Shown: in pieces, positions 14,493 to 63,257 of the stretch
Layout: every line of letters begins with the position of its first letter
Numbering within the stretch: the stretch's first letter is position 1
DNA from: Patescibacteria group bacterium
GTDB taxonomy: Bacteria; Patescibacteriota; Patescibacteriia; UBA10025; JAHIVO01
Length of the DNA: 64,000 bases
Direction of reading: 5' to 3'
Assembly (NCBI GenBank): GCA_049325535.1
Contig: JBMOKY010000001.1
Coordinates: 621,942-685,941 of the forward strand
Made by a program: the position numbers and the translations under genes
Notes under the pieces: model-generated
The model's database searches: none
Told to the model about the DNA's origin: nothing
What the model saw: only the letters and a program-made list of their open reading frames with translations

Positions 14493-15847
14493 TGCATCTC
14501 ATCGACCTCACCCTAAACAAAGAAATTACCAAAGTGGAAGGATCAGCCACGCTGGATGTGCGTATTACCGGGGGTAAGGTTGACCATTGCCGATTCGGTA
14601 TCTCCGAGTACAAACGTTTCTATACTCAGGCTATGCGCGGTAAACCATATCGCGCACTTCCGACGCTTCTTGCCCGTATTTGCGGCACCTGCTCAAATGC
14701 CCATCTCCTAGCCAGTATCGAGGCATGCGAAAAGGCGCTTGGTTTCAAACCATCGGATCAGACGCTGCTGATGAAGAAACTGACTATGTACGGCCTGAAC
14801 ATCCGTGATCACGCGCTGCACCTGTACCTCTTCGCCATGCCGGATATGTATGGCAAAGACTCATTCCTGGAGTTTGATGAAAATAAATCAGACGAGCACC
14901 AAATTCTCCATGACGCTTTTACGATCAAGGCGGCGGGCAACTATTTATCAATCATCATCGCTGGACGATCTGTCCACGCTATCAAACCCCAAATAGGTGG
15001 TTTTGCCGGTATCCCGACGGCCGAAGAAATTACTGAAGCAATACATAAATTAGAAATGGCGCGCCCCGCAGCACTGCGAACGATCGAACGATTCATGAAA
15101 TCGCCTGACCGATTCGACCGCCAGACAAAATTTATGGCTATGGTAGCGAACCCCTTTTCATACAATGAAGGGCACATCGTCAGCGACGACGGTGACTATA
15201 TCGAAGAAAAAGACTACCGGGAGCATCTCGAACACACCATTATCCCCTATTCTCACGCTTCAGGATACAAATTCAAAGGAAGGTCATTCATGGTTGGGGC
15301 GCTGGCTCGCATCAATTTGGCGAAAGACACGCTCCACCTGGCAACTCAAAAAAGTGCCGCGGCCGCACTGGAACTCTTCCCTTCTACAAATATTTTCCAC
15401 AATAACCTAGCCCAAGCAATCGAAATATTACATTGCATCGATCATACTATAGAAATACTTCATACGCATCGATTTGAACGCGAACCACTGGGACAGCCGG
15501 CCCTCGAACGCGGGACCGGCATCGGAGTCGTTGAGGCGCCACGCGGTACACTCTACCACAAAGTGACTATCGGGAGCGATGGTAATGTGGTTGAAGGTGA
15601 GATTGTCGTACCCACCGGTCAAAATCAAATCAATATCGAGCAGGATCTGGCCCGTCGCATCGAGGAGCTGATTCCGACTGACCCGGACGCGGACAAACTG
15701 CAACTGGAACTGGAAAAATTGATACGGGCATATGATCCGTGCATGAGTTGCGCCTCGCACTTTCTTAAAGTCCGTATTGGCGGAGCAACGGTACGAGCTG
15801 GGAAAAAGCTGTTTCAGGATCCAGCTGGGACGGTATCCCAAAAATAA
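14492..15847 (+). CDS. [NiFe]-hydrogenase large (catalytic) subunit
   Basis: N-terminal L1 motif RICGTCSNAH, C-terminal L2 motif DPCMSCASH followed by a 28-aa tail (substrate of a maturation endopeptidase); 451 aa. Confidence 0.9.
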   Translation: MHLIDLTLNKEITKVEGSATLDVRITGGKVDHCRFGISEYKRFYTQAMRGKPYRALPTLLARICGTCSNAHLLASIEACEKALGFKPSDQTLLMKKLTMYGLNIRDHALHLYLFAMPDMYGKDSFLEFDENKSDEHQILHDAFTIKAAGNYLSIIIAGRSVHAIKPQIGGFAGIPTAEEITEAIHKLEMARPAALRTIERFMKSPDRFDRQTKFMAMVANPFSYNEGHIVSDDGDYIEEKDYREHLEHTIIPYSHASGYKFKGRSFMVGALARINLAKDTLHLATQKSAAAALELFPSTNIFHNNLAQAIEILHCIDHTIEILHTHRFEREPLGQPALERGTGIGVVEAPRGTLYHKVTIGSDGNVVEGEIVVPTGQNQINIEQDLARRIEELIPTDPDADKLQLELEKLIRAYDPCMSCASHFLKVRIGGATVRAGKKLFQDPAGTVSQK

Positions 15848-16148: not shown

Positions 16149-16958
16149 TCAGAGCGTTTGATTGGCTAATTGCAAATGTTTTTGGGTGTAGTATTCAAGC
16201 CAGCGCACATTTGCCGGTGTAATGATCTCGCAGGGCATACCCCAATGCATGCTGATCATATCACCCACTGAAAGCTCTTCAAATGTGTGATCATCGTCGA
16301 GCCGCCGTACCACACTGACTGACTCAGTCGGCCCCAAATACAAACGGTGACCATCCACCATGAGCGGCTTGCGATCAACCGTAATTTTTGGCCCGGTAAT
16401 GGATGTCACCGAGCCCCAGCTGATGCGGCACGCGTCCATACTCTCGAGCGTATGTAATATCTCAAAATGTCCCGTGCGTTTATACACATTGAAGACGTGA
16501 AATGAATGGTGCATGCGGGCGCCACGGGGAAGTTTTTCAGTCAGCTCATCAAAACTTTTCGGCTGAATCTTTTTTTTCAAGCCAAGTACGTCGCGTAAAT
16601 GTGAGTAAAACGTATTGGGCGAGATAGTTTCCAGGAGCTGATTACCCAGCCAATACGCCTCCACGACACGTAGGTCAAACGGATCGGCGATGTGATTTGC
16701 TTTAGCGATGGTCTGCAAGTATGGATACAGTGTCCGAAACCCTCCCAGAATTGCATTGAGCCCGGCGTCGGTGGCATTTGCATCGATATATGATCCCAGC
16801 TCCCGCTGCATGTCAGGACCACACATCCTGAGCTTATTTGGTCCAAAGGCATACCGGGCGCACTTGCTGACGCCATCGACACTAGTTGTCAGCACCGACT
16901 GCATTGGATGGGACATGTGAGTGGTTTCGACGTACTTCCCAGAGCAGGAGGAATACAC
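16149..16958 (-). CDS. hypothetical protein co-transcribed with the hydrogenase maturation protease
   Basis: 269-aa ORF 3 nt upstream of the protease on the same strand; no family recognised (contains CARYAFGPNKLRMCGPD); start may be an internal Met because of overlap with the EamA gene. Confidence 0.5.
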   Translation of the reverse strand: MYSSCSGKYVETTHMSHPMQSVLTTSVDGVSKCARYAFGPNKLRMCGPDMQRELGSYIDANATDAGLNAILGGFRTLYPYLQTIAKANHIADPFDLRVVEAYWLGNQLLETISPNTFYSHLRDVLGLKKKIQPKSFDELTEKLPRGARMHHSFHVFNVYKRTGHFEILHTLESMDACRISWGSVTSITGPKITVDRKPLMVDGHRLYLGPTESVSVVRRLDDDHTFEELSVGDMISMHWGMPCEIITPANVRWLEYYTQKHLQLANQTL

Positions 16959-18508: not shown

Positions 18509-21500
18509 CTAATGCATAGTGGTCATAAATATTCCACCCTGAAACACCGGCGAATAGGCATAAAATTCTTTACGGATAAAATTGAAATTGGAAATGCTGT
18601 ATATCCGCACTAGCGGACTGCTCTGTGACCTGACGCCAACTAAAATTTCATCAGCACGATCATAATCAATATTCCCCGTGGCGACGCTTACGCCACCGCG
18701 AAATTGTGAAAGAAAAACGATAAATCCAGGATGAATGACACCCATCACCCCATTTTTAGTCCGACCAAATACCCGCACGTGTGGACCGCCAGCGACAGTA
18801 CCAGTTACGATTTCATCCAATCCATCGCCGTTGACATCTCCACAGGCGACGGTGATACCACCACGATAGCCCGGATCATAGGCCATCAAGCCCAGCGTTA
18901 CCGGCCGGAACTCGCGGTTACGGATGCCAAAGATGCGCAATTGGGGCCCGCCGGCCCGAGCCGGACCGGTAACCACCTCATCAATGCCATCGCCCTCAAT
19001 ATCACAGGTAGCCAGCGAAATACCGCCTCTGAACCGTTCGTCGTATGCCCAAAAACTTCTGACCAATGGAACAAACGCGCCCTCTCGGTATCCAAACACC
19101 CGTACCTGCGGTCCGCCGCCGCCCATCGGGCTGACTACGATTTCGCCCTCTCCATTGCCATCAAAATCTCCAACCGCAAGCGATACCCCACCCCGGAACC
19201 CTTCATCAAACGCATAAAACTCATTGAGCAATGAACCATTTCGACGGAAAACGCGTACCAGCGGCGGACTACCCGGCCCAGGAGCGGTGATGATTTCATC
19301 GTGCCCGTCCCCACCGAGATCACCCGCGGCTACCGATATACCGCTCCGCAGAGCACTGTCATATGCGAAAAATTGGCTCACCACCGTGCCATGACGATCA
19401 AACACCCGCACCTGCGGTCCGCCGCCATTGTTTGGCGCGGTGACGATATAGGTATCCACCTGAACCCGGAAACTGACAAGCGCGGCAGATGCGTCAATAT
19501 TTCCGGCAGTGTCCCGTGCCCGGACATACACTGTATGCGCGCCATTTGACAGTGTATGCAGCGTCACGCTAGTCTGCGCGCTCCAGGCTGACCAGGATCC
19601 ACTATCGAGGCGGTATGAGTAGCGTAACTGACTGGTCGGCGTGCTATCATCACTCCCTGTCCACGTGATAGTCACCACGGAGCTCTTCACTGCGGAGCGC
19701 GGGTAGGACACGAGTCGGGTATGTGGCGCCTCGTCAATCGGAACAGTACTCGTACAACTACGCGTGGTGCTCGGACGTTTAGCAATGGTGCCGCAGGCAT
19801 TCGCATCGGTACACGTTCGCGACTGACTACCACTGGCACAGGTGGACCAGCTGCCGCAAGACCATGATTCTGTGCACACCGGAACACTGCACGACTGACT
19901 CAACGCGGGACGGCTGATCATTGTCCCACAGGCATTCGCATCGGTACACGTTCGCGACTGACTACCACTGGCACAGGCGGACCAGCTGCCGCAAGACCAT
20001 GATTCAGTGCAGGAAAGAGTAATAAATGTCGCATCACTACTGGTGGCTAGGTTATCCGAACCATCACGGGACCTGACTCGATAATGATACGTCGTACCCG
20101 GCGTCAAGCCAGACAAAACACGACTATGGGACGTAGTAAGTACACTGTCCAGTCCAGTACTGGAGCCATAGGCGGCGGTGAGACCGTACTCCACTTGTGT
20201 GTCAGCCTGCTCATTCGTCGTCCAGGTGACGGTGGCGACCGCTTGGCCGATCGAGCCGACCGATACGTCGGAAATCACCGGAGCGGTCATATCAACCACA
20301 GCGTCAGTACGCTCTACTGCTCCGAGATCCGGAGCGCTTCCCTGCCAGTGCCGGCATCCGGTTTGATCAGGGTCGACATCATCCGACTGCGGACAATGGT
20401 AGCCGGCGATAATTTCACCTTGGTCAATAGCCGGACTCACTGACTGGAGTTGATAATTATGAGCGGCTTTATTCAGAAATAACGGGTCAGATTCGAAACT
20501 GTCCGCATCCTGGCTTGATGCCGTTTGCCAGGCTCCGAGCGTGGCATAGGTCGTCAGGGCGCTGGCCCGGTTTCCGGCAGTGCGCATGGCAAATGCCGTC
20601 GGACTGCTCGGGTGGTAGAAGAGATTATGGTTTGAAACGGCATTTGAAAATGAATTCCAATACAGTGAGATAAAACGGGTGCCCTGGGGTGAGGTGTAGG
20701 TTGGCACCAGATTTGAAATAATGTTATTTTTCGCCGTCAGATACGCTTCATCAAGATTGCACCCGCCCTGGGCGTCTGCCTCTGTCGTCACATGCAGACC
20801 GGACGTATCGACAATCGTATTATGGTACACCGCATACCGATTGTCCCCGCAGCCGTTAAAAATCGCGTAGCCACTGGCTTTTTGATCGGTTCGTGAAATG
20901 ATATTGAAAAAAATATTACCCTCAATGGTGCCGGCAACTTGTCCAGTGGCAGTCGGCCAACCGAGCCAGATACCTTCACGAGCGTCATGAATGACATTAT
21001 TTTTGACCGTGATGTCGATATCGCCGCGTTTCAGAGCGATCGGCTGGGCGATATTATAAAATTCATTGCCCTCTATCAGACTATCCATGACACCATACCA
21101 CTCGATGCCAGCCCCGAGATGCGCGGCTTCAAATCGCCAATCACCATATGACGGCCCGCGGTCACTGCCCGCGTCATGAATCAGATTATCCTTGATGACG
21201 TACCCAGGAGTATTTGGCAGATACGCCGCACCAGTGGCGCTGCCATTGTAAATTGCCGCGGGATTGCCGAGACAATAGCTGTCCCCAGTAGTAAAGGCGA
21301 TTTCGTTGTTTTCTATGGTGATATCCCCTGGATCGTCCTCGTACGGACTAAATGTCAACGCCCGGCCGTTTGATTGCATCAGAGTCATGTTACTCAATTC
21401 GAAATGGTACACGGACGGATGAGCAGAATATTCGCCAACCCTGACAATCGGACGCTGCGAGCATTCGATCGTGTGACTGGCCGGATTGTCGCTGTCGGGC

Positions 21501-22117
21501 ATCCACACATAGAGGTAATCAGTCAATTCGTCATACCAATATTCCCCCGCCTCATCTAAATCATCGAGTGTATCTTCCTGCACGGTTGGGTCGGCACGCA
21601 ACAACCATAACGAACGGTCGATCCAGCAGTTGGTATTATTAACTGAATAAATGTCGTTGCCGTCATAGCGGCACTGTGTCGGCGCGTCAAATTGGGCTCG
21701 ATATATGCTCCCGGAATAGAGCGACCATGACGCCGGGTCAATTTCGTCGCTGCCTAAAATGATGGTCTGCCCATAGTCCGTGGAATATCCCGAATAGATC
21801 GTCGGCTGCGCAGCATCCACGCCTGCTTTCGGAATTAGTTCTTCGCGATACTCGCCCTTGATCATTACCGTATCCCCCGCGGTATGAGCGGAATTTGCCC
21901 GATCGATGGTGCACCATGGGTGGTCAATATCGTTTTCCCCGGTCGTATAAGCGTCATCACAATCTATGTGCGTATTATCCACGTAATACACATTGCCCGC
22001 CGCTCTCGTCTCTATGGGATCGGCATACGCCAATGTCAACACTGTCAATCCGATGACCACGATTCCCCAGATAAGTATGCACCACTCGCGATATTTAATG
22101 ATACCCTTCATAGGCAA
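18509..22117 (-). CDS. giant secreted/surface protein: right-handed beta-helix, Fn3 domains, tandem Cys-rich repeats and C-terminal FG-GAP beta-propeller
   Basis: Signal/anchor N-terminus; pectate-lyase-like NNxI/GNxF repeats (IENNEIAF, IKDNLIHDAG, IEGNEFYN, VKNNVIHDA); Fn3-like segments; two near-identical 45-aa Cys repeats (CTESWSCGSWSxCASGSQSRTCTDANACG); six to seven FG-GAP repeats (GDLGGDGHDEI, GDFDGNGEGEI, CDIEGDGIDEV, GDVNGDGLDEI with GGPQxRVF). Confidence 0.8.
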   Translation of the reverse strand: MPMKGIIKYREWCILIWGIVVIGLTVLTLAYADPIETRAAGNVYYVDNTHIDCDDAYTTGENDIDHPWCTIDRANSAHTAGDTVMIKGEYREELIPKAGVDAAQPTIYSGYSTDYGQTIILGSDEIDPASWSLYSGSIYRAQFDAPTQCRYDGNDIYSVNNTNCWIDRSLWLLRADPTVQEDTLDDLDEAGEYWYDELTDYLYVWMPDSDNPASHTIECSQRPIVRVGEYSAHPSVYHFELSNMTLMQSNGRALTFSPYEDDPGDITIENNEIAFTTGDSYCLGNPAAIYNGSATGAAYLPNTPGYVIKDNLIHDAGSDRGPSYGDWRFEAAHLGAGIEWYGVMDSLIEGNEFYNIAQPIALKRGDIDITVKNNVIHDAREGIWLGWPTATGQVAGTIEGNIFFNIISRTDQKASGYAIFNGCGDNRYAVYHNTIVDTSGLHVTTEADAQGGCNLDEAYLTAKNNIISNLVPTYTSPQGTRFISLYWNSFSNAVSNHNLFYHPSSPTAFAMRTAGNRASALTTYATLGAWQTASSQDADSFESDPLFLNKAAHNYQLQSVSPAIDQGEIIAGYHCPQSDDVDPDQTGCRHWQGSAPDLGAVERTDAVVDMTAPVISDVSVGSIGQAVATVTWTTNEQADTQVEYGLTAAYGSSTGLDSVLTTSHSRVLSGLTPGTTYHYRVRSRDGSDNLATSSDATFITLSCTESWSCGSWSACASGSQSRTCTDANACGTMISRPALSQSCSVPVCTESWSCGSWSTCASGSQSRTCTDANACGTIAKRPSTTRSCTSTVPIDEAPHTRLVSYPRSAVKSSVVTITWTGSDDSTPTSQLRYSYRLDSGSWSAWSAQTSVTLHTLSNGAHTVYVRARDTAGNIDASAALVSFRVQVDTYIVTAPNNGGGPQVRVFDRHGTVVSQFFAYDSALRSGISVAAGDLGGDGHDEIITAPGPGSPPLVRVFRRNGSLLNEFYAFDEGFRGGVSLAVGDFDGNGEGEIVVSPMGGGGPQVRVFGYREGAFVPLVRSFWAYDERFRGGISLATCDIEGDGIDEVVTGPARAGGPQLRIFGIRNREFRPVTLGLMAYDPGYRGGITVACGDVNGDGLDEIVTGTVAGGPHVRVFGRTKNGVMGVIHPGFIVFLSQFRGGVSVATGNIDYDRADEILVGVRSQSSPLVRIYSISNFNFIRKEFYAYSPVFQGGIFMTTMH
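19793..20062 (-). repeat. intragenic tandem direct repeat, 2 x 135 bp, encoding the Cys-rich 45-aa repeats
   Basis: Copy 1 starts at 19793 and copy 2 at 19928, nearly identical (single-base differences visible, for example caggtgg versus caggcgg). Confidence 0.6.
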
Positions 22118-25603: not shown

Positions 25604-27091
25604 CTAACGAGACAGATCGTCAACCGGTACTGGCATAGTCGCCGTCCCCGATCCCGCACTCCCCGTCACTACTCCCTGGGTTTCAATCAGTTCCGCCGCC
25701 AGCGGCACCACTACCCGCTGCTTCCAGGGACTTTTCTCAGGGTCAGCCGGGTCAATAGCAAATGCCAGTGCCGGTACGTATAGTTCATTGGTCCCGGTAT
25801 CATCGTACTGACTCATGATTATATAGGCAAATTCGGGGGCCTGAAGACGAATCTCAACCGTATTGGTAGCCGGCTCCGGCTGATACTCATATAAACCACC
25901 GCGCTCGATGATGGCGCGAAGCTCATCCACATCAGTTTCATTGGCATATTCCGAACTGTCAAAATCCATCGACTGTAGAGGATAGACAGAGGAAACACGC
26001 AGATCCGGTAAGCTCAGTGACACTTGCAGACCCTGCTGCTCACCATACGCACCATATACCGAAAGCCCGCCTATCTGTAGGGGGAAGATGACGGTCATAC
26101 TGGAAACATATGGTGCTGATTCACGGTACAGCAGCGGTTCTACTCCACCGTATCCAGCGACAGAGACGACTTCTGGCTCACCATACCCACTATAGGAAAT
26201 GTCGTGGGCATCGAGAAACGACCTGGCGGCCATAATCAGTTTTTCATCTGCGGGTATATCAGCGGTTCCCTGGGGCGTGGCAGCGGTCTCCGCGCAGTCC
26301 TCGCCGACACAATCGACCGCCACATCTCGGGTGGCATAGAGCATGTCACTGCTGATGCTGATCAGGCCATCCTGCACGTTGATATCGATAGCATACCCAC
26401 CCTCGGCAGTCTGGGCCAATGAAACGTGGCGCGTTTCTAAATCAGCAAAAGAAGACATGCGCATCAAATCCAGACCATAGGATTCTAGGTTTGCGGACAC
26501 TGAGGTAGTGGGACGGATACGGCGTACCACCTGGCTGGACGCCGGAATATCAGGAAACTCTCCACTATAAACATAGCGGTAGCTTGTAATTTCAGCATTC
26601 TGATCCGGCACAGGGAACGTACCGGGTTCTATGGCCGTTGCTGTGGTATCCGATGCCATTTCATCGGCGACATTGGTTGACTGGCGAGAGGATGATGGAC
26701 TACTCGATGATAAATCGCCAAACGCATTCGCTGACAGCTGCTGGATACCGCCTGGGGGGGTAAAAATATCATCAGTGCCTGAGGGTTGCCACCACACGTA
26801 CCAGGAAACTCCCACCACAACCACCAAGACCAGCAGACTCGCAGCTGGCACCATGGGATGAGCGCTGAGCCATCCAAACCACGAGGTTCGTACCGCTGAA
26901 CCGGCTTCCGGCTGAATAGTACGCAGCCGTTCGCGCAAAGCAGCGCGGAATTGCTCATCGATATGAACGGTCGGTTGGCTCTGGAGCAGTGCCGTGACGA
27001 TTTGCCGGACACGATCTTCATGTCCGAGGAGACGATGGTCATCGGCCACCAGCTCACTAACCAATTGATCAATACGTTCGGGGGAAATCAT
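25604..27091 (-). CDS. putative anti-sigma factor with large extracytoplasmic domain
   Basis: Directly downstream of the ECF sigma gene; cytoplasmic N-terminal domain, one TM helix (PMVPAASLLVLVVVVGVSWYVWW), about 390-aa extracytoplasmic part. Confidence 0.55.
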   Translation of the reverse strand: MISPERIDQLVSELVADDHRLLGHEDRVRQIVTALLQSQPTVHIDEQFRAALRERLRTIQPEAGSAVRTSWFGWLSAHPMVPAASLLVLVVVVGVSWYVWWQPSGTDDIFTPPGGIQQLSANAFGDLSSSSPSSSRQSTNVADEMASDTTATAIEPGTFPVPDQNAEITSYRYVYSGEFPDIPASSQVVRRIRPTTSVSANLESYGLDLMRMSSFADLETRHVSLAQTAEGGYAIDINVQDGLISISSDMLYATRDVAVDCVGEDCAETAATPQGTADIPADEKLIMAARSFLDAHDISYSGYGEPEVVSVAGYGGVEPLLYRESAPYVSSMTVIFPLQIGGLSVYGAYGEQQGLQVSLSLPDLRVSSVYPLQSMDFDSSEYANETDVDELRAIIERGGLYEYQPEPATNTVEIRLQAPEFAYIIMSQYDDTGTNELYVPALAFAIDPADPEKSPWKQRVVVPLAAELIETQGVVTGSAGSGTATMPVPVDDLSR

Positions 27092-27100
27092 ATGCTTGTA

Positions 27101-27664
27101 TTATATAGTTATCGTGATAATAAATATCAGTGTGGCCACAGCAGCCAATGCAATTCGCGTTTGCCGGAGCACCCGTGAAATTTGCATCTTACATTGGCCC
27201 TCGGTCATGCCGGCTATCTGGGCGATTTCACGGTATGACAAGCCATCCCATATGCGCAGCAATACCACATCGCGATGTCGAGGCGATAATCCAGACAGAT
27301 ATTGGCGCACCTCCGACAGCAGTGCCAATTGTTCAGACGAATTTTCCGTACGTGGTTCACGACTGGTTTGCAGTATCACATCGAGGGGGATGACGGCTTT
27401 TGCAGTACGGTAATGATCGATGATGGTGTGCCGGGCGATGCGGTACAGCCAGGCGCGAAACGATCCCCCGCGATACCTTCCGATATGCCCCAGTGCCTTG
27501 ATAAATACAGCACTGGTCAGATCTTCCGCCGTTTCTCGGTGCAGCGTCCGCGCATATACAAACGCGTACATTCGATCGACGTAGTCGTCGTACAATTCAC
27601 CAAATCGTTCCATATCCCCTGCCTGGCAGGCAGCGATGGCCTCCGTTTCTCGTACGGTATCCAT
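27101..27664 (-). CDS. ECF-type RNA polymerase sigma-70 factor
   Basis: Region 2 (FRAWLYRIARHTIIDHYR) and region 4 HTH (LSYREIAQIAGMTEGQCKMQISRVLRQ). Confidence 0.85.
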   Translation of the reverse strand: MDTVRETEAIAACQAGDMERFGELYDDYVDRMYAFVYARTLHRETAEDLTSAVFIKALGHIGRYRGGSFRAWLYRIARHTIIDHYRTAKAVIPLDVILQTSREPRTENSSEQLALLSEVRQYLSGLSPRHRDVVLLRIWDGLSYREIAQIAGMTEGQCKMQISRVLRQTRIALAAVATLIFIITITI

Positions 27665-48558: not shown

Positions 48559-48600
48559 TAAAAAACCAACACTGGCGCTTCGGGCGAAGCACCAGTGTGG
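48559..48600 (-). terminator. rho-independent terminator (minus strand)
   Basis: CCACACTGGTGCTTCG-CC-CGAAGCGCCAGTGTTGG followed by TTTTTT on the minus strand. Confidence 0.6.
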
Positions 48601-48625: not shown

Positions 48626-49174
48626 TTATTCCACCGATGATGTCTGGGGTGGACGTCCATGCATGCTCATACCTGCATGGCCCGTATGTTGCTGGATATG
48701 TTCTAGGCGCTCATCCATCTCATCCTGGGTGATAGTACCATTGTCTACCATTTCCTGTAGATGAGTTTTGGCCTCAAGTGTTCTCTGCTCTCGCATCTGC
48801 TCCTGAAGGGCAGTATGGCTGATACCTTTTTCATCGAGCAGCTGGGCAAATGTTTTATCCTTGAGCTGCTGAGTCAGTTCATCGGTGCTGATACCCAGCA
48901 CGTCTGCCTGATGCTCGAGCCGCTGCTGTGAACGAAGGGTGTCGAGCTCCTGATGGCTGACCCCATGACTGTCGAGGAAAGACGCCATGCCATCCTGAGC
49001 GATTTCCTGCTCCGCTTCACTGACGCTGACATTTGCGAATTCCGCCAGTTGTTCAGTTGGCGCTCCTGGGCCGAAACCTCCGCCGATTCCACGCGCCGCA
49101 GCGACGGTGCCGCCGACGAGGAGAAAGGCGGAGAGGCCAAGGATTGCGCCGAGTGCGTACTTGTTCATGCGCAT
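48626..49174 (-). CDS. hypothetical secreted protein with repeated helical G[IV]S[HT]xEL motifs; start trimmed to MRMNKY
   Basis: Signal peptide; three repeats (GVSHQELDTL / GISTDELTQQL / GISHTALQEQM); terminator downstream. Confidence 0.5.
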   Translation of the reverse strand: MRMNKYALGAILGLSAFLLVGGTVAAARGIGGGFGPGAPTEQLAEFANVSVSEAEQEIAQDGMASFLDSHGVSHQELDTLRSQQRLEHQADVLGISTDELTQQLKDKTFAQLLDEKGISHTALQEQMREQRTLEAKTHLQEMVDNGTITQDEMDERLEHIQQHTGHAGMSMHGRPPQTSSVE

Positions 49175-49244: not shown

Positions 49245-50021
49245 TTATTTTTCAAACCGGTAAAATATCTCCATGCGTTCGTGATGCGGGATCACTCCCT
49301 GGCTAATGCCAGGGCCGATATACAGCGGCAGTACCTGGCTCGCCACGAAAATATCTGATTGCGAACCCTGGATATGCCCAATCACGCGCACAAAATCACC
49401 AACATTCGGATCAAACCGCCGTGGCATACTGAAATCCTGCGCCGGCTGAATAATCCAGGAATTGCCGTCAAACGACATCAGCTGAAACATCCCGACCCCG
49501 CTCAGCATGGTCGTCACCTGCCCGGCGAGCAACCCTTGCTGTGGCTGCATCCAGATGAGGATGCGATCGTCAGGGCCACGGAACAGAAATGGCGCCCGTT
49601 CCGCAAGCAACCGGTCAATTTTCGGCCCCAGTCCAAATCCATATAGCGCACCGCCAACGACCATGCTGAAAACGATACTGGCAGCCACCAGCCAATACGC
49701 GTGATATTTATAAGCGCCACGAGTATGCCGGACATTGTAGTACGCCAGGCCGATGAAGAGGATAAGTACGCCAATCCATATGTAGGGCAACGTGGTGACC
49801 ACGTGCGTAATCGGCGGTTTAGGCAGATACTCGAGCACTTCCCAGTCATTATTGACCACTTCAAACAGCATCACGCTGAATGACACACTCCCCAAGAGCG
49901 CGGCAAATCCAGCCGCCGTCCACACCAGTGACCGCTGCACCAGAAACTGCCAGCGCGGTTTAGGCACGATATGCTGTTCTTTGATGGTATGGAGTATTTT
50001 GTCGGTTAATTGCTCGTTCAT
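49245..50021 (-). CDS. putative membrane anti-sigma factor
   Basis: Overlaps and follows the ECF sigma gene; four TM helices and an extracytoplasmic C-terminus. Confidence 0.5.
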   Translation of the reverse strand: MNEQLTDKILHTIKEQHIVPKPRWQFLVQRSLVWTAAGFAALLGSVSFSVMLFEVVNNDWEVLEYLPKPPITHVVTTLPYIWIGVLILFIGLAYYNVRHTRGAYKYHAYWLVAASIVFSMVVGGALYGFGLGPKIDRLLAERAPFLFRGPDDRILIWMQPQQGLLAGQVTTMLSGVGMFQLMSFDGNSWIIQPAQDFSMPRRFDPNVGDFVRVIGHIQGSQSDIFVASQVLPLYIGPGISQGVIPHHERMEIFYRFEK

Positions 50022-50608
50022 AGTTCGATATTCTCCTTCTCAATAATACTACGCAGCTGAGCCTTTGCCCGATGCATCAGGGTGCCGATCGTCCCCACTG
50101 GTTTTTGCATGATATCGGATATTTCCTGATAGTCTTTTTCTTCCACATACCGCAGTAATAGCACATCGGCGTATTTACGGTCGAGGCGCTGGATCAAACG
50201 CTGGACAGTAGCCGCGTCCAAGCGCTGGCTTACCTCCGTATGTACGTCACGCTCATCTTTGACCATTTCCAAAAATTGTTCCGCAGATTCTCCGCCGATG
50301 AGCTGTACCCGGGCCGTTCGTTTGCGGTGGTCGCTGATGGTTGCATTGCGTGTAATCCGGTATATCCACGAGGAAAATTTGAGAGCGGGGTCAAAATCCC
50401 GCAAATTACGGTACGCATTGATAAATACTTCCTGGAGTATGTCCTCGGCATCCTCCGCCGAAAGGCCGGAAAGCCGCCGAATGTACCGTAGGAGCGGCGC
50501 CTGATAGCGCTCCACCAAACACCCATACCACTCCTGATCCTGCAGGGTTCGCTGGACAATCTCTTCATCGGTTGTTTCGGCGCAATCCTTCAGCATGCAA
50601 AAAAACAA
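50018..50608 (-). CDS. ECF-type RNA polymerase sigma-70 factor
   Basis: Region 2 (FSSWIYRITRNATISDHRKR) and region 4 (YQEISDIMQKPVGTIGTLMHRAKAQLR). Confidence 0.85.
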   Translation of the reverse strand: MFFCMLKDCAETTDEEIVQRTLQDQEWYGCLVERYQAPLLRYIRRLSGLSAEDAEDILQEVFINAYRNLRDFDPALKFSSWIYRITRNATISDHRKRTARVQLIGGESAEQFLEMVKDERDVHTEVSQRLDAATVQRLIQRLDRKYADVLLLRYVEEKDYQEISDIMQKPVGTIGTLMHRAKAQLRSIIEKENIEL

Positions 50609-50677: not shown

Positions 50678-51142
50678 CTAAAAATCATCAGGCTCCATCC
50701 AGCTATCCAACTGCGTCACCGGCAGTAATTGGGCTATGTGTACTGCCACTTTTCGGACAGTCCGATCCACGGTGCCGGTAGTCTGGATTACCCGGTCTTC
50801 ATTACCACTGCCCTGAATCGGTAAAATATCGCACGTACCCTGCCCTAGCTGGAGCGTCTCCCCGCCCGCGTATCCACTGTCCATCCGGAGTTGATTCAGC
50901 GCGTATTCAGCACAGGCATCAGCCAATCCGCGTGCTTCCGCCGATTGCTGACCGCTCAGGCTCGTCTGGGCGCTGCTGATACCGAAGGTCATCAGAGTGG
51001 ACGCCACAGCCAATCCCACCACGCTGATCACCAGTACGCTGATCAGTACGACGTATCCCCGCTGCCGGGATTGATGCTTAGCGAAGGCTGGCTGTGGCAT
51101 AAAAAGTTTGTTCATATGAATACGCATATTGACCGCCGGCAT
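50678..51142 (-). CDS. PilX-like type IV pilus minor pilin/assembly protein
   Basis: N-terminus QRGYVVLISVLVISVVGLAVAS resembles the PilX_N hydrophobic segment; about 150 aa. Confidence 0.5.
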   Translation of the reverse strand: MPAVNMRIHMNKLFMPQPAFAKHQSRQRGYVVLISVLVISVVGLAVASTLMTFGISSAQTSLSGQQSAEARGLADACAEYALNQLRMDSGYAGGETLQLGQGTCDILPIQGSGNEDRVIQTTGTVDRTVRKVAVHIAQLLPVTQLDSWMEPDDF

Positions 51143-51584
51143 TACGGCGTGATAGTTGCAGCACTATGCGCACGGCGCCTGGACTACCTGGGGTCGTTAC
51201 CGAAGTGACGCTGAAAGTGTCGACGGCGACCTGACGTGAAGTAAGCGCCACCGAAGATCCGGCTCCCTGAGTAATCATAAGCGTCCCATCGACAACTGAA
51301 AACGTAGTCGGACTGAGCGCGGCATCGGCGACATCAATGGTTAGGACCTGGCCAGTGCCGCTCGCCGGAGCCTGAAGCGTAGTCGCGGATCGAACAGCCT
51401 GAGTCATTACCCGGAGCACGTGTACCCCCTGCTGCTCCACTTCACTGATGCTCTCCGTACGGATCCGGGCGGTCAGTGTCATAAATAATAATGACGATAC
51501 ACCGGCTACCACAATCCCCGCGATGCCGATGTAGACGAGCAACTCGAGCAAGGTAAATCCGCGTGGTACAGCTGAGGATTTCAT
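51078..51584 (-). CDS. type IV pilin-like protein (prepilin N-terminal methylation motif)
   Basis: RGFTLLELLVYIGIAGIV class III signal peptide with Glu at +5. Confidence 0.7.
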   Translation of the reverse strand: MKSSAVPRGFTLLELLVYIGIAGIVVAGVSSLLFMTLTARIRTESISEVEQQGVHVLRVMTQAVRSATTLQAPASGTGQVLTIDVADAALSPTTFSVVDGTLMITQGAGSSVALTSRQVAVDTFSVTSVTTPGSPGAVRIVLQLSRRNAGGQYAYSYEQTFYATASLR

Positions 51585-52978
51585 TGGGGCATGATAATAA
51601 TGCACTCGTTACTATTTTGGGTACCGGCCAATACAGCGCGATCAAGCGTACTGCTGTATGCGACCCCGCGGAGCGGCCCGTTCACATCGAGGGTGGATAC
51701 CTCGACGATGTTTTCCAAATCAGAAATATCTGCCACCTTGAAGTCAGCCGACGTCTGCCCGGTAGCCAAAAAGACATATTGATTACCCGCCCCCAGCGCC
51801 ATGTCATACACCGCGCCGCTGGCATTATAGATACCCAGCGGTTTCGGTGTCAGGGGCGTGGCTATATCAATAGTCTCGACGGCATTCCCAGCCGTACCCA
51901 GCACTATCGTATTCCCAAAACCAGCCACACTAAGCCCATCAGCCGTACCTGAGGCGTTATAGCTGGCCACCTGCGTGATAACCGCCGGATTGGCTACATT
52001 AATAACCGTTAATTCTTGCGCGTTATTGGCTGAGGCAACATACGCATACGTACCCAAAACAATGACATCATTAGCCTGGCTTCCCAGATTCATCGAGTCC
52101 TGCAGATGCGGGCTGGCGGGTGTGCTCACGTCAATGGCAAAAAATTCGTCACTGGTACTGGACGCGCGTACTAGATACACAGTCGAACCGGCTACGGTTA
52201 CCCCGAGGGCGTTTGCCACGCCAGCGGCATTATAGCTTCGTACCGTTACCGGCGCCGATGGTGTGGAAATATCCACTATTTGCAATTCCGCGTTATTATC
52301 ACTGGAAGCGACGTATGCATACTGTCCTGCCAGTGTAATATCGTTTCCGCCGGTAGCTAGATTGAGGCTGCCGGCTACCTGCGGCGAAGTAGGATCGCTA
52401 ATATCAATAACCATAAAATTTGGCGTTCCACTTGGACGGACCATATACGCGTACGAGCCGCTGATCTGCACTTTTACTGCGTCTGCATTGCCAGCCAGAT
52501 TCAGTGATGCCTCCACCGTAGGATTCGTCCAGGAGGCCAGTGACTGAACCTGATGCCAATCGGTCAAATACGTCACCAGCGAAATGGTGCCCGTCCGCCC
52601 GCCGGACTGTGGCCACGTCACCCGGCTGGTGATTTCCCGAGTCTGCGCATCAAGCGAGCGTATGGTTATAGTACGAGTAAAATCATCAGTCCGGTCGCTA
52701 CTGCCAGCGAATTGCCAGTTATCACCCACCAACTGCAGTCCATACGTACCATCGGTGAATATGCCAAAATCAGCGTCGCGGATCGTGCGGGATGCTTCCA
52801 GACCTTCATCGGCCAATTGCACCGCCCGTTCTCGAGCGCCAGCCGTCAGTGCCGCATCCTGACTGGTGATATATGAGCCGACGAGGATAACGATGATAAT
52901 TGCGAAAATCCCGCCCGCGACGAGTATTTCGACCAGGGATATGCCAGACTGTGATTGTCGCGGGAGGTGGTGTGTCAT
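51581..52978 (-). CDS. PilV-like minor pilin fused to an LVIVD-repeat beta-propeller
   Basis: N-terminus GISLVEILVAGGIFAIIIV (prepilin type); C-terminal six repeats with LVIVD-type signatures (MVIDISDPTSP, LQIVDISTPSAP, FAIDVSTPASP, LTVINVANPAV, VETIDIATPLTP, KVADISDLENI). Confidence 0.7.
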   Translation of the reverse strand: MTHHLPRQSQSGISLVEILVAGGIFAIIIVILVGSYITSQDAALTAGARERAVQLADEGLEASRTIRDADFGIFTDGTYGLQLVGDNWQFAGSSDRTDDFTRTITIRSLDAQTREITSRVTWPQSGGRTGTISLVTYLTDWHQVQSLASWTNPTVEASLNLAGNADAVKVQISGSYAYMVRPSGTPNFMVIDISDPTSPQVAGSLNLATGGNDITLAGQYAYVASSDNNAELQIVDISTPSAPVTVRSYNAAGVANALGVTVAGSTVYLVRASSTSDEFFAIDVSTPASPHLQDSMNLGSQANDVIVLGTYAYVASANNAQELTVINVANPAVITQVASYNASGTADGLSVAGFGNTIVLGTAGNAVETIDIATPLTPKPLGIYNASGAVYDMALGAGNQYVFLATGQTSADFKVADISDLENIVEVSTLDVNGPLRGVAYSSTLDRAVLAGTQNSNECIIIMPQ

Positions 52979-52981
52979 GGG

Positions 52982-53440
52982 TTATTGGCTTACCATACCA
53001 TGGGAATTTATAGTCACAGTCAGAGTACGTTCGCGAGCGCTGAAAGAAATAATACCCGTACTGACCGGCAGGCCGCTCACTTTTGAAAACACCACTTCGG
53101 TCATTCCGCCCAATGTCAGCGCTGTATTGATAGCGGTAACCTCATCAAACTGAGCATCACGGTTGGCATATGACTCACCCTGGAATACGACGATGCTACC
53201 TGGACCGACACGCACCCCCCAGGTACTGTCGCCGGCGCTGGCCATAGCCAGCGACTGTGCCCGGCGAAGATTATGAACGGTGCTGAGCGCGGCTATATCT
53301 ACATCTGCGCGAACCTGAAATGACTGATACACCGGCGCCGCAAAACCGGCCAGCAAGCCGATGACCGTGACGGTCACCAGTACCTCCAATAAAGTAAACC
53401 CAGAAATCCGGCTGATAGTCTGTACTGCGAATTGATGCAT
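52982..53440 (-). CDS. type IV pilin-like protein (FimT/GspH-like)
   Basis: SGFTLLEVLVTVTVIG prepilin motif; start trimmed to MHQFAV. Confidence 0.7.
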   Translation of the reverse strand: MHQFAVQTISRISGFTLLEVLVTVTVIGLLAGFAAPVYQSFQVRADVDIAALSTVHNLRRAQSLAMASAGDSTWGVRVGPGSIVVFQGESYANRDAQFDEVTAINTALTLGGMTEVVFSKVSGLPVSTGIISFSARERTLTVTINSHGMVSQ

Positions 53441-53567
53441 ACTGCTTGCAAAAAATACCCCCTTCGGTGTACCATTGCTGATGTCTACATGTGGCATATG
53501 GTGGCTATAGTATACCATATTTTACAGATTTCCGAGCAAAGTACATAAACCTCATCCTGGCATCCTC

Positions 53568-54017
53568 ATGAAGTCATCACTCCGAAATATTTTATTTGGA
53601 CTGATCGTCGGCGGTTTGCTGCTCGGCACTGCTGGGTATTTCCTGATTAAAAACACCGAAAAAGTCGTGACTGAACCCGCCCCATCGGCTCCCGGTGAAA
53701 CGGCGCAACCAGAACCCCTGCCCGTCTCCACTCCGCAGCCAGAACCGCCAACCGTATCATTAGTGTCCGCGCCGTATTTTTTTAGCCCGGTTCGTATCAC
53801 CATACCCGAGGGAACGACTGTCCGTTTTAATGTCACGAATTTCGGCAAACATACATTTACCTCCAGCCAGCTCGGCGTGCGCATTCCCCTGGAGCAGACC
53901 CACCAGTCATTTTCGCTCACTCCGACCAAAACCGGAGTTTTTGAATTTTACAGCACCGTCAATAATGACCGGGCACGTGGTATGGAAGGCGCGATCGTTG
54001 TCGTCCCAAATTCCTAG
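53568..54017 (+). CDS. membrane-anchored cupredoxin-like domain protein lacking an evident copper site
   Basis: TM anchor, Pro-rich linker, about 90-aa beta domain with cupredoxin-like pattern (RITIPEGTTVRFNVTN...GVFEFYS...GAIVVV) but no Cys/Met ligands. Confidence 0.4.
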   Translation: MKSSLRNILFGLIVGGLLLGTAGYFLIKNTEKVVTEPAPSAPGETAQPEPLPVSTPQPEPPTVSLVSAPYFFSPVRITIPEGTTVRFNVTNFGKHTFTSSQLGVRIPLEQTHQSFSLTPTKTGVFEFYSTVNNDRARGMEGAIVVVPNS

Positions 54018-54021
54018 CTAC

Positions 54022-54049
54022 AAAAAAAGGCGCACCATCGTGATGCGCC
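54022..54049 (-). terminator. rho-independent terminator (minus strand)
   Basis: GGCGCA-N9-TGCGCC hairpin followed on the minus strand by TTTTTTT. Confidence 0.5.
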
Positions 54050-54062
54050 CATGAGCAACTGA

Positions 54063-59590: not shown

Positions 59591-60652
59591 CTATAAGACT
59601 TCCATCACTCCGGAATACATGCCCATGGAACAAGCAAAGGTGTATTTACCTGGCTTGGTCGGGGTAAAGGTAAAGGTTTGGGAGTCGGTCGGCTTGAGCG
59701 TGGTGCTGATTCCGAATTCTCGAAAAGTGAACGCTGATGCGCAAGTGTACACGTCATCGGTCATCAGCGTCAGTGCAACCGGTATACCTGCGCGTACCGA
59801 AATCCGATTGGGTATGTACCCCCGATCTTCCACATTGATCGTCACCCGCTGAAGCTGTTCAGCGCTCATCGGCCCCGAAGTATCGAGCGGTACCGACACC
59901 ACCGGAGTTGCATCGCGCGTCAGGGACTGGGTCATTTTCTGCCAGGAAATAGGGGCATCCAGGACAAGCAAAACACCATTGGCACTATACAAAAACATGA
60001 AGACGAGCAGGGCAGCGGCTGCCTTCAGAAATTTTGATCGCCAGGCTTCGGACAATTTTGCGGTAACTATTCCGACCAGGCTAAAAACTGGCGCCGTACC
60101 GAGAACAAATGTTGCCATGATCAGAGCGCCGGACAGGGCATTGCCGCTGGAAATGGCCAGTATCTCCATAGCCTGCGTAACCCCACAGGGCACCAGGATA
60201 GTCAAAAATCCGACTACCGCCGGGGCGAACCACGACGTGCCACGGGTCGACCGGCGCACCCACCGCTGCATAAACCGCGGTGGCTGAAAGCTCATAAAGC
60301 GAAATATGGGATGAACCTGAAGCAGATTGAGCGCGGTGGCGAGCATAAAAAGAGCGGCGATAATTTGGAACGTGATGCGCATCCCCAGGCTGAAGGTTAG
60401 CACCGATCCGATCGCGCCCAATGCGGCGCCAAACAGCGTATGCGATACTAATTTCGCTCCGAGGAATATGACAACTGGCAGCCAGTCTTCCCGATCAAAC
60501 GACCGTGCACTGAGCGAAGGATTACCGGGATTCTCATTTAGATCTTTTCCTTTCTGATTGGCAATCACCGAGGCCAGCAGGCCTCCTTGCATCGCCACGC
60601 ATGACAACCCCCCGGTGGTCAAGCCTGTGATAAAAATAAACCAAAGGTTCAT
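59591..60652 (-). CDS. CcdA/DsbD-like membrane domain fused to a C-terminal cupredoxin_1 domain
   Basis: TM1 GGLSCV and TM4 VPCG cysteines in the CcdA arrangement; C-terminus FTFTPTKPGKYTFACSMGMYSGVMEV matches the cupredoxin_1 pattern (F.C.MGMH.G). Confidence 0.6.
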   Translation of the reverse strand: MNLWFIFITGLTTGGLSCVAMQGGLLASVIANQKGKDLNENPGNPSLSARSFDREDWLPVVIFLGAKLVSHTLFGAALGAIGSVLTFSLGMRITFQIIAALFMLATALNLLQVHPIFRFMSFQPPRFMQRWVRRSTRGTSWFAPAVVGFLTILVPCGVTQAMEILAISSGNALSGALIMATFVLGTAPVFSLVGIVTAKLSEAWRSKFLKAAAALLVFMFLYSANGVLLVLDAPISWQKMTQSLTRDATPVVSVPLDTSGPMSAEQLQRVTINVEDRGYIPNRISVRAGIPVALTLMTDDVYTCASAFTFREFGISTTLKPTDSQTFTFTPTKPGKYTFACSMGMYSGVMEVL

Positions 60653-60658
60653 AGCTCG

Positions 60659-62878
60659 TTATGATAATTTCTTAGCACCGCGTTTTAAGAGCAGCGAATT
60701 TGTCACTACCGATACACTGGAAAAAGCCATGGCTGCGCCAGCGAGCTCGGGTCGGAGTTGCCAGCCAAAAATGGGGAAAAAAATGCCAGCCGCGATGGGA
60801 ATCCCAGCCACGTTATACACCAGTGCCCAAAAAAGATTTTGCACAATCTTACGAAACGTCTTGCGGGACAGTCTAATGCCACGAGCCACATCCCGTAAAT
60901 CATTTTTGACGAGGACTATTTGCCCTGTTTCCAGAGCGACATCGGTACCCGAACCAATGGCAATCCCCAGATCGGCCTGGGCCAGGGCTGGTGCGTCATT
61001 GATGCCATCCCCCACAAAAGCAACGTTCTTCCCGATCGACTGTAATTGCTCGACCTGATAGGATTTCTCATGCGGCAGCACCTCTGCCAGGACGTGCGTG
61101 ATTCCCACCTGGCCAGCGATGGCAGTAGCGGTTTGTGTATTATCTCCGGTAATCATAACTACTTCGATCTTCATTTTTTTGAGTTGAGCCACAGCAGCAG
61201 CTGACGTTTCTTTGACCGTGTCCGCAACTGCGATACACCCCGTCAGTTTTTTATTCTGTGCCAACAGCATGACAGTCTTGCCACCCAGTTCCATTTTCTC
61301 AATATGGGGAGCTAAGCCAGCAATGTCAATTCCTTCATCGATCATTAATGTTTTATTGCCCAGTAGAGTATCGACCCCACCAACGATTCCCCGCACTCCA
61401 TGTCCGGGAATCGCAGCAAAATCGGTGACGTGATACAATGCCATGTTTAGCGCCTCCGCATGCTTGACGATAGCCTCAGCCAATGGATGTTCGGACTGTT
61501 TTTCTATCGATGCCGCCACGGCAATCACCATCTGCTCGTCATTTCCCGGGGTGACACGCACATCGGTGACAGTCGGTTTTCCATTTGTCAGAGTGCCTGT
61601 CTTATCAAATATCACTGTGTCAATTTTCCGCGCTGCCTCGAGCGCCTCGCCACCTTTGATCAAAATACCCCTACTCGCCCCCAACCCAGTACCGGTGATA
61701 ATGGCCGTCGGCGTAGCCAAACCGAGCGCGCACGGACAGGCTATCACCAATACCGCAACAAACGCCATCAGACTCGGGACAAATTGCTGACCAGCCAGGA
61801 AATACCACGAAATAAATGTAATCAACGATATAGCAATAACGGTAGGCACAAAATACGCTGATACCCGATCGGCAAACCGCTGGATAGGCGCTTTTGATGC
61901 TTGCGCCTGTTCTACCAAACGTATGATACCGGATAAAAGAGTATCCTTGCCAACTTTTGTAGCTATATACGTAAACGACCCATGCGTATTGATCGTACCG
62001 CCGATGACGACATCGTTTGGATTTTTTTCGATGGGAATACTTTCACCCGTAACCATAGATTCATCGACTGACGAATGACCTTCCTCAACCGTGCCATCAA
62101 CCGGAATCTTCGCGCCCGGTTTCACCCGGATCACATCTCCTACCTGCACCTGATCCATAGAGATTTCCTGCTCGACGCCATCACGAATAACAATTGCTGT
62201 TTTCGGCGCCAACCCCATCAGTTTTTTTACGGCTTCGTTGGTTTTGCCTTTAGCCCGCGCTTCAAGCCATTTGCCCAGCAGAACAAAAGCAATCAAGATG
62301 CTGCCGATTTCAAAATATACCTCACCCTCGATCAGTCCGACGACTACTACGACCGAATACCCATAGGCAGCCGAGGTGCCCAAGGCAATCAAGCTGTCCA
62401 TATTGGCGGTGCGGGAGCGCAGCGCATCCCATGAGCCACGATAAAATTGCCACCCTGACCAAAATTGGATCGGCGTGGCAAAGAGGAACTGCAGCCAGCC
62501 GCGATACGGTATCATTTCAATTCCCGGGATGATAAGCATGCCCATACTCAAAATCAGCACAGGAATGGCGAGCCCCAAACTTATCCAAAATGTACGACGG
62601 ATTTTTTTTATTTCCGCCTCCTTATCCATGGACTCAGTATTGTGCCCACGATCGAGCACGCTCCCCTGGTAGCCCGCCGCCACTACCGCTTTGATCAATT
62701 GGTCGGTTGTTACCGTGTCTGATGCATACGAGACATGGGCTCGTTCAGTCCCATAATTAACCACCGCCCGTTCGACTCCCGGCACTTTTCGCAAACGACG
62801 CTCAATTAACTGAGCACAGCTGGCGCAGTGCATGCCACCCAGTGAAATAATTTTTTCTTGAGTCATAGGGTTCAGCAT
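60659..62878 (-). CDS. copA: copper-translocating P1B-type ATPase CopA; start trimmed to MLNPMTQ
   Basis: N-terminal HMA (GMHCASC), CPC metal-translocation motif ([10 protein letters not shown]), [15 protein letters not shown]. Confidence 0.9.
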
Positions 62879-62882
62879 ACGA

Positions 62883-63257
62883 TCATTCGTTGACGATAAT
62901 TTTCCCCTGGTACATACCCATATCACAGGTGAAGGATATTTCACCCTTTTCTTTCGGCGTGAAATCGACATCCGTCATAGCGAACGGTTTTAAGTCTTTG
63001 CGGATCCCTAGTCCGTCAAACGTCACAAATCGTGAGCACTCGGCGTCCTCCTGCCGATTGAAATGAATGCGTAATGGCACGCCAGACTGCACCGTAATCT
63101 CATTTGGATCATATGCCCCTTTAACCAATATGGTAATTTCTTGGATGGCACCCTTTATTTCTGCGCGCTCCTGACGACGCTGGAATCTGAGCCAGAGCCA
63201 AAATACCCCGATGACCAGGATTATCAGCAACGTGCCTATCATTTGGCGAGTGTCCAT
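62883..63257 (-). CDS. membrane-anchored cupredoxin_1 domain protein
   Basis: N-terminal TM then [18 protein letters not shown]-terminal cupredoxin_1 signature; 4 nt upstream of copA. Confidence 0.65.

Follow-up and report, generated by a model that had tools for sequence, protein, structure and literature searches.

A four-gene minor-pilin cassette of Patescibacteria, one of whose pilins carries a predicted seven-bladed LVIVD propeller

We describe a cassette of four pilin-like genes, here called H, I, J and K, in a stretch of 64,000 nucleotides from a Patescibacteria group bacterium (GenBank assembly GCA_049325535.1, contig JBMOKY010000001.1, positions 621,942 to 685,941; the whole stretch is called the window, and positions below are those of the window). 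In the list of open reading frames of this 64-kb window the four are consecutive and tightly packed on the minus strand, with the transcription order H-I-J-K. Minor pilin H, in the position of GspH, ComGD or FimU, occupies 52982-53518 (longest open reading frame 178 amino acids); the second gene of the cassette encodes the modular minor pilin I, in the position of GspI, PilV or ComGE (51581-52978; 465 amino acids); it is followed by minor pilin J, in the position of GspJ, PilW or ComGF (51078-51605; longest frame 175 amino acids, from a GTG at 51605), and by the cap-type minor pilin K, in the position of GspK, PilX or ComGG (50678-51142; longest frame 154 amino acids). The real start of H is probably M27 at 53440 or an ATG at 53497. 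For J the more likely start is the ATG at 51584, which overlaps the stop codon of I (ATGA) and would give 168 amino acids; for K it is M15 at 51100, with a predicted product of about 140 amino acids, because Met15 is nearly invariant in the alignment of K orthologues. A gene call made independently on an identical public contig gives 168 amino acids for J and 149 for K. The gap between H and I is 3 nucleotides, and J and K overlap by about 23.

A first-pass annotation of this DNA, made from the sequence alone, had reported four consecutive minus-strand pilin-like genes and quoted their N-termini, and both the frames and the motifs are present as it described them. It had credited the four with prepilin signals or PilX-like N-termini, and the signals are canonical, with Gly at -1 and Glu at +5, in three: H reads ISRISG/FTLLEVLV (the slash marks the predicted cleavage site, here between G40 and F41, and E45 is the Glu at +5), I has the leader MTHHLPRQSQSG/ISLVE (G12/I, with E17 at +5), and J reads AVPRG/FTLLELLVY, also with Glu at +5. 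The corresponding site of K, QRG/YVVLISVLV, has the Gly at -1 and the hydrophobic stretch, but Ile instead of Glu at +5, as in cap subunits of the GspK/PilX/ComGG type. The Pfam profile N_methyl (PF07963, cut-off 21.2 bits) is matched above its cut-off by H (25.9 bits) and J (27.5 bits) only; I, whose family has the consensus GFSLVE, scores 14.1 bits. A six-frame regular-expression search of the whole window for the pattern G-[hydrophobic]-x-x-x-E followed by a hydrophobic stretch returned just three instances in 64 kb, those of H, I and J; pilin motifs are confined to the cassette, and their clustering is therefore not due to chance.

The same pattern is seen when N-termini are compared across orthologues taken from 80 related loci. 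The consensus is [KR]G/FTLIE for H, G/FSLVE for I and G/FTLIELLLY for J, each with Glu at +5, and [KR]G/YITLISVLV for K, without it: the motif was found in 48 of 66 K orthologues, the other 18 giving no motif match, and position +5 was Ile, Leu, Val or Met in 38 of the 48 and Glu in none. The absence of Glu5 is a hallmark of the top-most tip subunit in type IV filaments, GspK being one example. The alignment of K orthologues also shows two invariant Cys and one invariant Trp (C77, C104 and W148 in the numbering of the 154-residue frame).

On the evidence of its sequence and of a structural model, I appears to be a GspI/PilV/ComGE-like pilin module fused to a seven-bladed LVIVD propeller, and it falls within the definition of a modular pilin (Raynaud et al. 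2021). The Pfam LVIVD profile (PF08309, IPR013211) matches it with an E-value of 4.6e-25 and 87.1 bits, the cut-off being 20.2. An AlphaFold2 model built on an alignment of 54 homologues has a mean predicted local distance difference test score (pLDDT) of 92 and a predicted template modelling score of 0.71. In this model the pilin module (residues 1-140; 52559-52978, minus strand) consists of an alpha-1 helix (residues 15-69) and a beta-sheet head (residues 77-139) at a pLDDT of about 90. A short, conserved connector follows (residues 141-153), in which W141 and W150 are nearly invariant and confidence dips at residues 144-146, and it leads into the beta-propeller (residues 154-465; 51584-52519, minus strand; pLDDT 93-98), in which 28 strands between residues 154 and 463 are arranged as seven times four. 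Laid out by blade, the sequence itself falls into seven repeats of 44-47 amino acids with the motifs (V)GSLNL, G.YAYVA and ELxIVDIS.P, the seventh of which runs to the C-terminus and closes with ECIIIMPQ. The top Foldseek matches of the model in the PDB are seven-bladed WD40 propellers (beta-TrCP, WDR61, RACK1 and G-beta; E about 1e-11 over some 330 columns, TM-scores to the target of 0.6-0.83, identity 10-14%), which confirms the fold class of the modelled propeller without giving a functional hint; against viral structures, Foldseek returned generic propellers only. The repeat domain thus models as a beta-propeller on a PilV-like pilin, as the first-pass annotation had proposed, whereas its count of six blades must be raised to seven, on the strands, the sequence repeats and the Foldseek matches alike.

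The protein is 100% identical to the NCBI entry 'MAG: hypothetical protein ACOYUK_03480 [Patescibacteria group bacterium]', and the fusion is not peculiar to this genome: it belongs to a pan-Patescibacteria family. More than 585 protein clusters match I at E<=1e-3, of which those listed are mostly 450-500 amino acids long and match over their full length at 36-48% identity; the range for full-length relatives is 33-53%. A scan with one genome per species, run with a 21-sequence subset of the I alignment, found relatives in at least 268 species genomes, and the best 80 loci from these were compared. Neighbourhood tallies were made over 82 related loci, with upstream tallies confined to the 74 that have enough upstream sequence, and tallies of downstream pilins and of extracytoplasmic function (ECF) sigma factors to 75. 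The best 80 loci come from Paceibacteria/Parcubacteria, Saccharibacteria and Gracilibacteria, from Uhr-, Moran-, Kaiser-, Woese-, Dojka- and Berkelbacteria, and from Peri-, Falkow-, Jackson-, Terry-, Komeili-, Kuenen- and Staskawiczbacteria and WWE3.

Gene order across these loci is nearly constant: a response regulator (about 120 amino acids), PilB (about 550), PilC (a T2SSF protein of about 365), H, the propeller-bearing I, J, K, and one or two pilins (about 155), often with a histidine kinase after them. PilB and PilC both lie directly upstream of the quartet in 70 of the 74 loci and one of the two does so in the remaining 4; a response regulator is found upstream in 57 of 74, and a downstream pilin with the highly conserved, major-pilin-like N-terminus GFTLLE[IV]LLVVAAI.ILAGIVI in 52 of 75. 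The only genes that recur in the operons of the 80 loci are those for the response regulator, PilB, PilC, pilins and histidine kinase; a second ATPase is present in none of the orthologous operons, and neither a secretin nor GspC, GspL or GspM was seen in them, although these genes were not systematically searched for. Nothing places the quartet in a type IV filament machine more firmly than this synteny, which, together with the H-I-J-K order of the weak family matches (below), gives good support to the earlier suggestion that these genes are the usual minor-pilin set that primes assembly.

Two further observations concern the membership of the family. Fourteen records of metagenome-assembled genomes (MAGs) from one submitter series (L016, L020-L022, L029, L030, L038, L040, L055, L058, L060, L062, L077 and L080) are titled Gammaproteobacteria, Bdellovibrionales or Pseudomonadales and bear the typical Patescibacteria operon; their taxon labels are probably wrong or placeholders. 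Some relatives of I are longer, at 650-1080 amino acids with about twice the number of LVIVD repeats (loci L041, L060, L071, L073 and L077; proteins P0002-P0004), and to judge by their sequences these probably carry two propellers or extra C-terminal modules.

Each orthologue set was also scanned against NCBIfam or Pfam profiles. Orthologues of H matched GspH (34/35) and ComGD (33/35); the N-terminal 150 residues of I orthologues (n=41) matched ComGE (38), XpsI (20), PilV (17) and GspI (13); those of J matched PRK10557 (37/40) and ComGF (27/40); and those of K matched ComGG (10/41) and PilX_N (1). All of these matches lie below cut-off, and although they fall in the canonical H-I-J-K (ComGD-E-F-G) order they are weak, and would point to resemblance and positional equivalence rather than to formal membership. 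The prominence of ComGD, ComGE, ComGF and ComGG among the best family matches could also be read as the mark of a Com-like DNA-uptake pseudopilus, that is, a short competence filament made of equivalents of ComGD to ComGG, in which the propeller captures DNA or anchors the filament in the wall. The orthologous operons, with one ATPase, one platform protein and otherwise only pilins, and without PilT or PilMNO, are in keeping with such a filament, and Patescibacteria depend on salvaged nucleotides. However, the Com matches share mostly the N-terminal helix; the ATPases of the orthologous loci, at 546-583 amino acids with MshEN and T2SSE domains, are of the PilB/MshE/GspE kind and not of the short ComGA type; neither comEA nor comEC was seen in the orthologous loci; and we know of no beta-propeller that serves as a DNA receptor of Com pili. 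We therefore consider a competence filament improbable.

The reading that we favour, and consider probable, is that H, I, J and K form the core minor-pilin quartet of a Patescibacteria type IV filament, with the propeller at the tip, where it would most likely be a ligand-binding (adhesin) head. The minor-pilin part of this reading is strongly supported by comparative genomics. From what is established for type IV filaments, a prepilin peptidase would cut each subunit after the conserved Gly, and H, I, J and K would pack against one another by their hydrophobic alpha-1 helices and so form, on the PilC platform, a priming complex, beneath which a PilB-type ATPase would polymerise the major pilin, so that the complex would end up at the filament tip. 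K, which lacks Glu5 as expected for the top-most subunit, would cap the complex, and I would display its propeller at the tip on the short conserved connector. The propeller would then be a covalently fused counterpart of PilY1, most likely an adhesin head, which may also be needed for priming. This tip-adhesin role is plausible because of the analogy with other modular pilins (PMC8179133), with PilY1 and with PilX2 of TM7x (PMC11623550).

The comparison with these systems also shows where I differs from them. The prepilin-LVIVD architecture is not new as a database object, having been catalogued already in 2021: Dataset S1 of Raynaud et al. 2021 (PNAS, PMC8179133) contains about 30 InterPro proteins in which a prepilin domain (IPR012902) is followed by 1-13 copies of IPR013211, and the paper mentions an 860-amino-acid protein of Candidatus Falkowbacteria and speaks of a 'motif of unknown function'. 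Since IPR013211 denotes the LVIVD repeat, the catalogued proteins share the domain architecture of I; the entry gives no fold, blade count, H-I-J-K position, operon context, taxonomic breadth or experiment. A literature search found no study that links LVIVD to Patescibacteria pili or that describes this operon. PilX2 of TM7x (Nanosynbacter lyticus, Saccharibacteria), a propeller pilin of its T4P-2 system, resembles I in being a minor pilin from Patescibacteria that ends in a seven-bladed beta-propeller and has been proposed as a tip adhesin; its deletion leaves the cells piliated but brings the share of host cells bound down from 10.6% to 4.6% (PMC11623550). As described, however, PilX2 has RCC1-type repeats, no predicted PilD signal and a pilin-only locus, in a system with PilMNO, whereas I has LVIVD repeats, no RCC1 Pfam match and a canonical Gly at -1 and Glu at +5, and its orthologues lie between pilC and the other minor pilins. 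Judged by its sequence, then, I is not a pilin of the RCC1 type.

In type IVa pili, PilY1 (or PilC) with FimU-PilV-PilW-PilX likewise brings a seven-bladed propeller to the tip on a four-member priming complex of minor pilins. PilY1 is a separate, non-pilin protein with a propeller family of its own (IPR008707), whereas the LVIVD propeller of I is fused to the pilin in the PilV/GspI position, and I has no PilY1/Neisseria_PilC Pfam match at E<=0.1; by analogy, I may be functionally like PilY1 while not being a member of its family. GspH-I-J-K of the type II secretion system and ComGD to ComGG share with the cassette what, from the weak matches, appears to be the same four-gene order, with a small I subunit in second place and a last subunit without Glu5. 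In the type II secretion system the extra domain is in GspK, whereas here it is in the subunit at the GspI position.

The propeller might, alternatively, have a structural or priming role only, starting or stabilising assembly or plugging the tip in the manner of the C-terminal domain of PilY1, with no specific ligand. In Myxococcus and Pseudomonas, priming depends on PilY1 (cited in PMC11623550). The fusion keeps the same length across nearly all Patescibacteria classes, at 33-53% identity; its propeller and its pilin module are similarly conserved, with no face of the propeller obviously more so; and the two nearly invariant Trp of the connector would be consistent with a propeller held in one orientation relative to the pilin head. 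Against a role confined to priming, TM7x without PilX2 is still piliated and binds its hosts poorly, which shows that adhesion alone can be the task of a propeller pilin, and the double-length LVIVD regions of some relatives (about 790-1080 amino acids) look like diversification of a binding module. On balance we hold that a propeller for priming alone is quite unlikely.

A number of results weigh against the reading of the quartet as the tip of a filament with an adhesin head. Column conservation, taken as the mean frequency of the commonest residue per column, is 0.56 in the propeller and 0.62 in the pilin module, and a comparison of the propeller's loop classes for a binding face gave no clear conservation signal. 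Across lineages whose hosts presumably differ, the propeller is thus conserved to much the same degree as the pilin module, which argues against a host-specific receptor, and the pattern fits a generic ligand or a structural or priming role better; a generic envelope ligand, or a structural or priming role, is as plausible as a host-specific receptor. For the I family as a whole, tip location and adhesion are what we infer from comparison. Every equivalog-level family match scores under its curated cut-off, and K had no Pfam match of its own in the Pfam scan. The AlphaFold2 model of K, built on 9 sequences (pLDDT 76 overall and 86-91 in the head), has a helix at residues 13-73 followed by a five-stranded sheet; Foldseek found no significant match to it in the PDB, the best pilin being S. 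sanguinis PilA (7o5y; TM-score about 0.5, E 2.8), and phmmer searches of all PDB sequences with K, and with the pilin module of I, returned nothing meaningful. The pilin nature of K rests on its N-terminus, its position, the ComGG matches of its orthologues and this predicted helix-plus-sheet model.

The machinery expected beside the quartet is also missing from the window. Searches of the 64 kb by tblastn with six PilB and six PilC sequences gave P-loop noise only, the six-frame search found no further pilin motif with Glu5 and so no major pilin, and no pilD or other prepilin peptidase gene was recognised in the window. The first-pass annotation had likewise noted that PilB, PilC and a major pilin were absent. 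A search with the PilB protein of the nearest full operon (L026, below) yielded at least 8000 matches, of which the best 120 include none from the window's contig or from that of a Kerfeldbacteria relative, a result that is uninformative.

What is unusual in this genome, therefore, is not the fusion but the layout, with the cassette detached from pilB, pilC and the major pilin. Of the 80 loci, L026 (DATDWU010000004.1, 1679-11232) has the nearest full operon, which reads HK587-RR-RR-PilB-PilC-H-I-J-K-pilin174, where HK and RR stand for histidine kinase and response regulator. In the window, one histidine kinase and two response regulators lie upstream of H, set apart from the pilin cassette by a terminator-like hairpin after the response-regulator genes (54028-54050, minus strand; 10 pairs and a T-run) and by a cupredoxin-like gene on the strand opposite to the cassette (53568-54017, plus strand); no fragments of pilB or pilC pseudogenes were found between the response regulators and H. 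The prefix HK-RR-RR is shared between L026 and the window, with the proteins only 25-37% identical, so that common ancestry is unproven. The lone cupredoxin-like gene occupies the slot in which related genomes have pilB-pilC, and a copper cluster lies about 6 kb from it (59591-62971, minus strand), with genes for a P-type ATPase, a DsbD_2 and cupredoxin protein and a small HMA protein.

On the other side of the cassette, 70 nucleotides downstream of K and with no terminator-like site between, is the gene for an ECF-type sigma factor (50018-50608, minus strand; 196 amino acids) with regions 2 and 4 only (Sigma70_r2, E 4.6e-17; Sigma70_r4_2, E 1.5e-14), which is probably co-transcribed with the cassette. 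The next gene (49245-50021, minus strand) begins within the sigma gene, overlapping its stop by 4 nucleotides, and encodes a multi-pass membrane protein of 258 amino acids with no Pfam domain, a putative anti-sigma factor by position only; after it comes a gene for a conserved protein of about 180 amino acids with an N-terminal hydrophobic segment (48626-49168, minus strand), the last before a strong terminator-like hairpin (48569-48598, minus strand; 13 pairs and a T-run). This hairpin is likely the 3' end of a unit comprising H-I-J-K, the sigma factor and the membrane protein. A scan for sigma-70 promoters did no better than with shuffled sequence. The first-pass annotation had placed an ECF sigma/anti-sigma pair upstream of the pilin genes; the sigma gene, which lies at lower coordinates on the minus strand, is in fact downstream of them, and of the pair the sigma factor is well founded while its partner has no Pfam support as an anti-sigma factor.

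The same block order, H-I-J-K, sigma factor, membrane protein, small protein and PGA_cap, is found in a Kerfeldbacteria genome (GCA_016214565.1; L087), in which no PilB or PilC was found within 10 kb on either side of the cassette. Amino-acid identities between the window and this locus are 48% for H, 42% for I, 41% for J, 54% for K, 63% for the sigma factor, 54% for the membrane protein, 46% for the small protein and 55% for PGA_cap. The detached layout also occurs at about 99% nucleotide identity on three metagenome contigs from other samples. Because the other-sample contigs and the Kerfeldbacteria genome share the block, the detached layout is conserved in the lineage and stems neither from misassembly nor from a recent deletion.

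Could the cassette nevertheless be an orphan remnant, which lost pilB, pilC and the major pilin and is decaying or has ceased to serve a filament? Of the loci examined, the window and the Kerfeldbacteria locus (L087/L088) are alone in lacking PilB and PilC beside the quartet; one or both stand there in every one of the 74 related loci whose upstream sequence suffices, and for this genome no pilB or pilC fragment was found in the window, nor does its contig appear among the best 120 PilB matches. Yet all four reading frames are intact and every family-invariant residue is kept, and the layout persists in a relative whose pilin proteins are only 41-54% identical. Strain variants, with few substitutions to count, show more synonymous than non-synonymous changes per site in I and J, the ratio of non-synonymous to synonymous changes (pN/pS) being about 0.2-0.3 for I and 0.16-0.18 for J; since this ratio is low and the family-invariant residues are kept, the cassette is maintained by selection. 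Other bacteria often have their minor-pilin operons apart from the machinery genes, and the third pilin locus of TM7x is a precedent for such a separation. An abandoned or decaying cassette is thus highly unlikely, and under the favoured reading of a functional minor-pilin quartet the genes would, in this genome and in its Kerfeldbacteria relative, have become separated from pilB, pilC and the major pilin and would now stand before an ECF sigma factor and its membrane partner.

The linkage to an ECF sigma factor is conserved only within the lineage of the window and the Kerfeldbacteria genome. As a family-wide trait it was ruled out, an ECF gene being present in one of 75 loci with an unrelated partner: in that locus, from Saccharimonadia (L003; CAZBGX010000003.1, 11192-12624), an ECF sigma factor and a partner of 299 amino acids follow the major pilin of the operon, and the partner is not similar to the 258-residue protein of the window. 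A broader proposal would make the LVIVD pilin an ancestral, near-universal, PilY1-like tip module for a generic host envelope ligand, and would have the quartet wired, in a Kerfeldbacteria-like lineage, into an operon of ECF sigma factor and membrane sensor that ties tip-complex production or contact sensing to envelope signalling; we regard this as tentative and, as a whole, rather unlikely.

Other genes of the window were noted in passing. A predicted surface protein of 1202 amino acids (18509-22117, minus strand), with a right-handed beta-helix, an fn3/purple-acid-phosphatase-N domain, C-terminal FG-GAP repeats and a duplicated Cys-rich motif of about 45 residues, CTESWSCGSWS.CASGSQSRTCTDANACGT, is a candidate for a second adhesin with propeller-type repeats. 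A second ECF sigma factor (27101-27664, minus strand) is followed by a protein of 495 amino acids without a Pfam domain (25604-27091, minus strand). An Oxidored_q6 small subunit (13947-14492, plus strand) adjoins a NiFeSe_Hases large subunit (14492-15847, plus strand; E 1.4e-27) with the N- and C-terminal Cys motifs of such a subunit, a [NiFe]-hydrogenase-like pair in a genome of about 1.15 Mb, and a protein of the DUF6390 family is encoded at 16149-16958 (minus strand; E 1.2e-61).

Patescibacteria account for much of bacterial diversity, and attachment to other cells is the presumed way of life of most of them. In work on oral Saccharibacteria, pilins were reported to be poorly conserved across Patescibacteria (PMC11623550), and the I family is a counter-example. 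It also supplies a specific candidate, open to expression and testing, for a conserved module of attachment or priming, and its detached, ECF-linked version is a natural variant with which to ask how the production of a tip complex is controlled.

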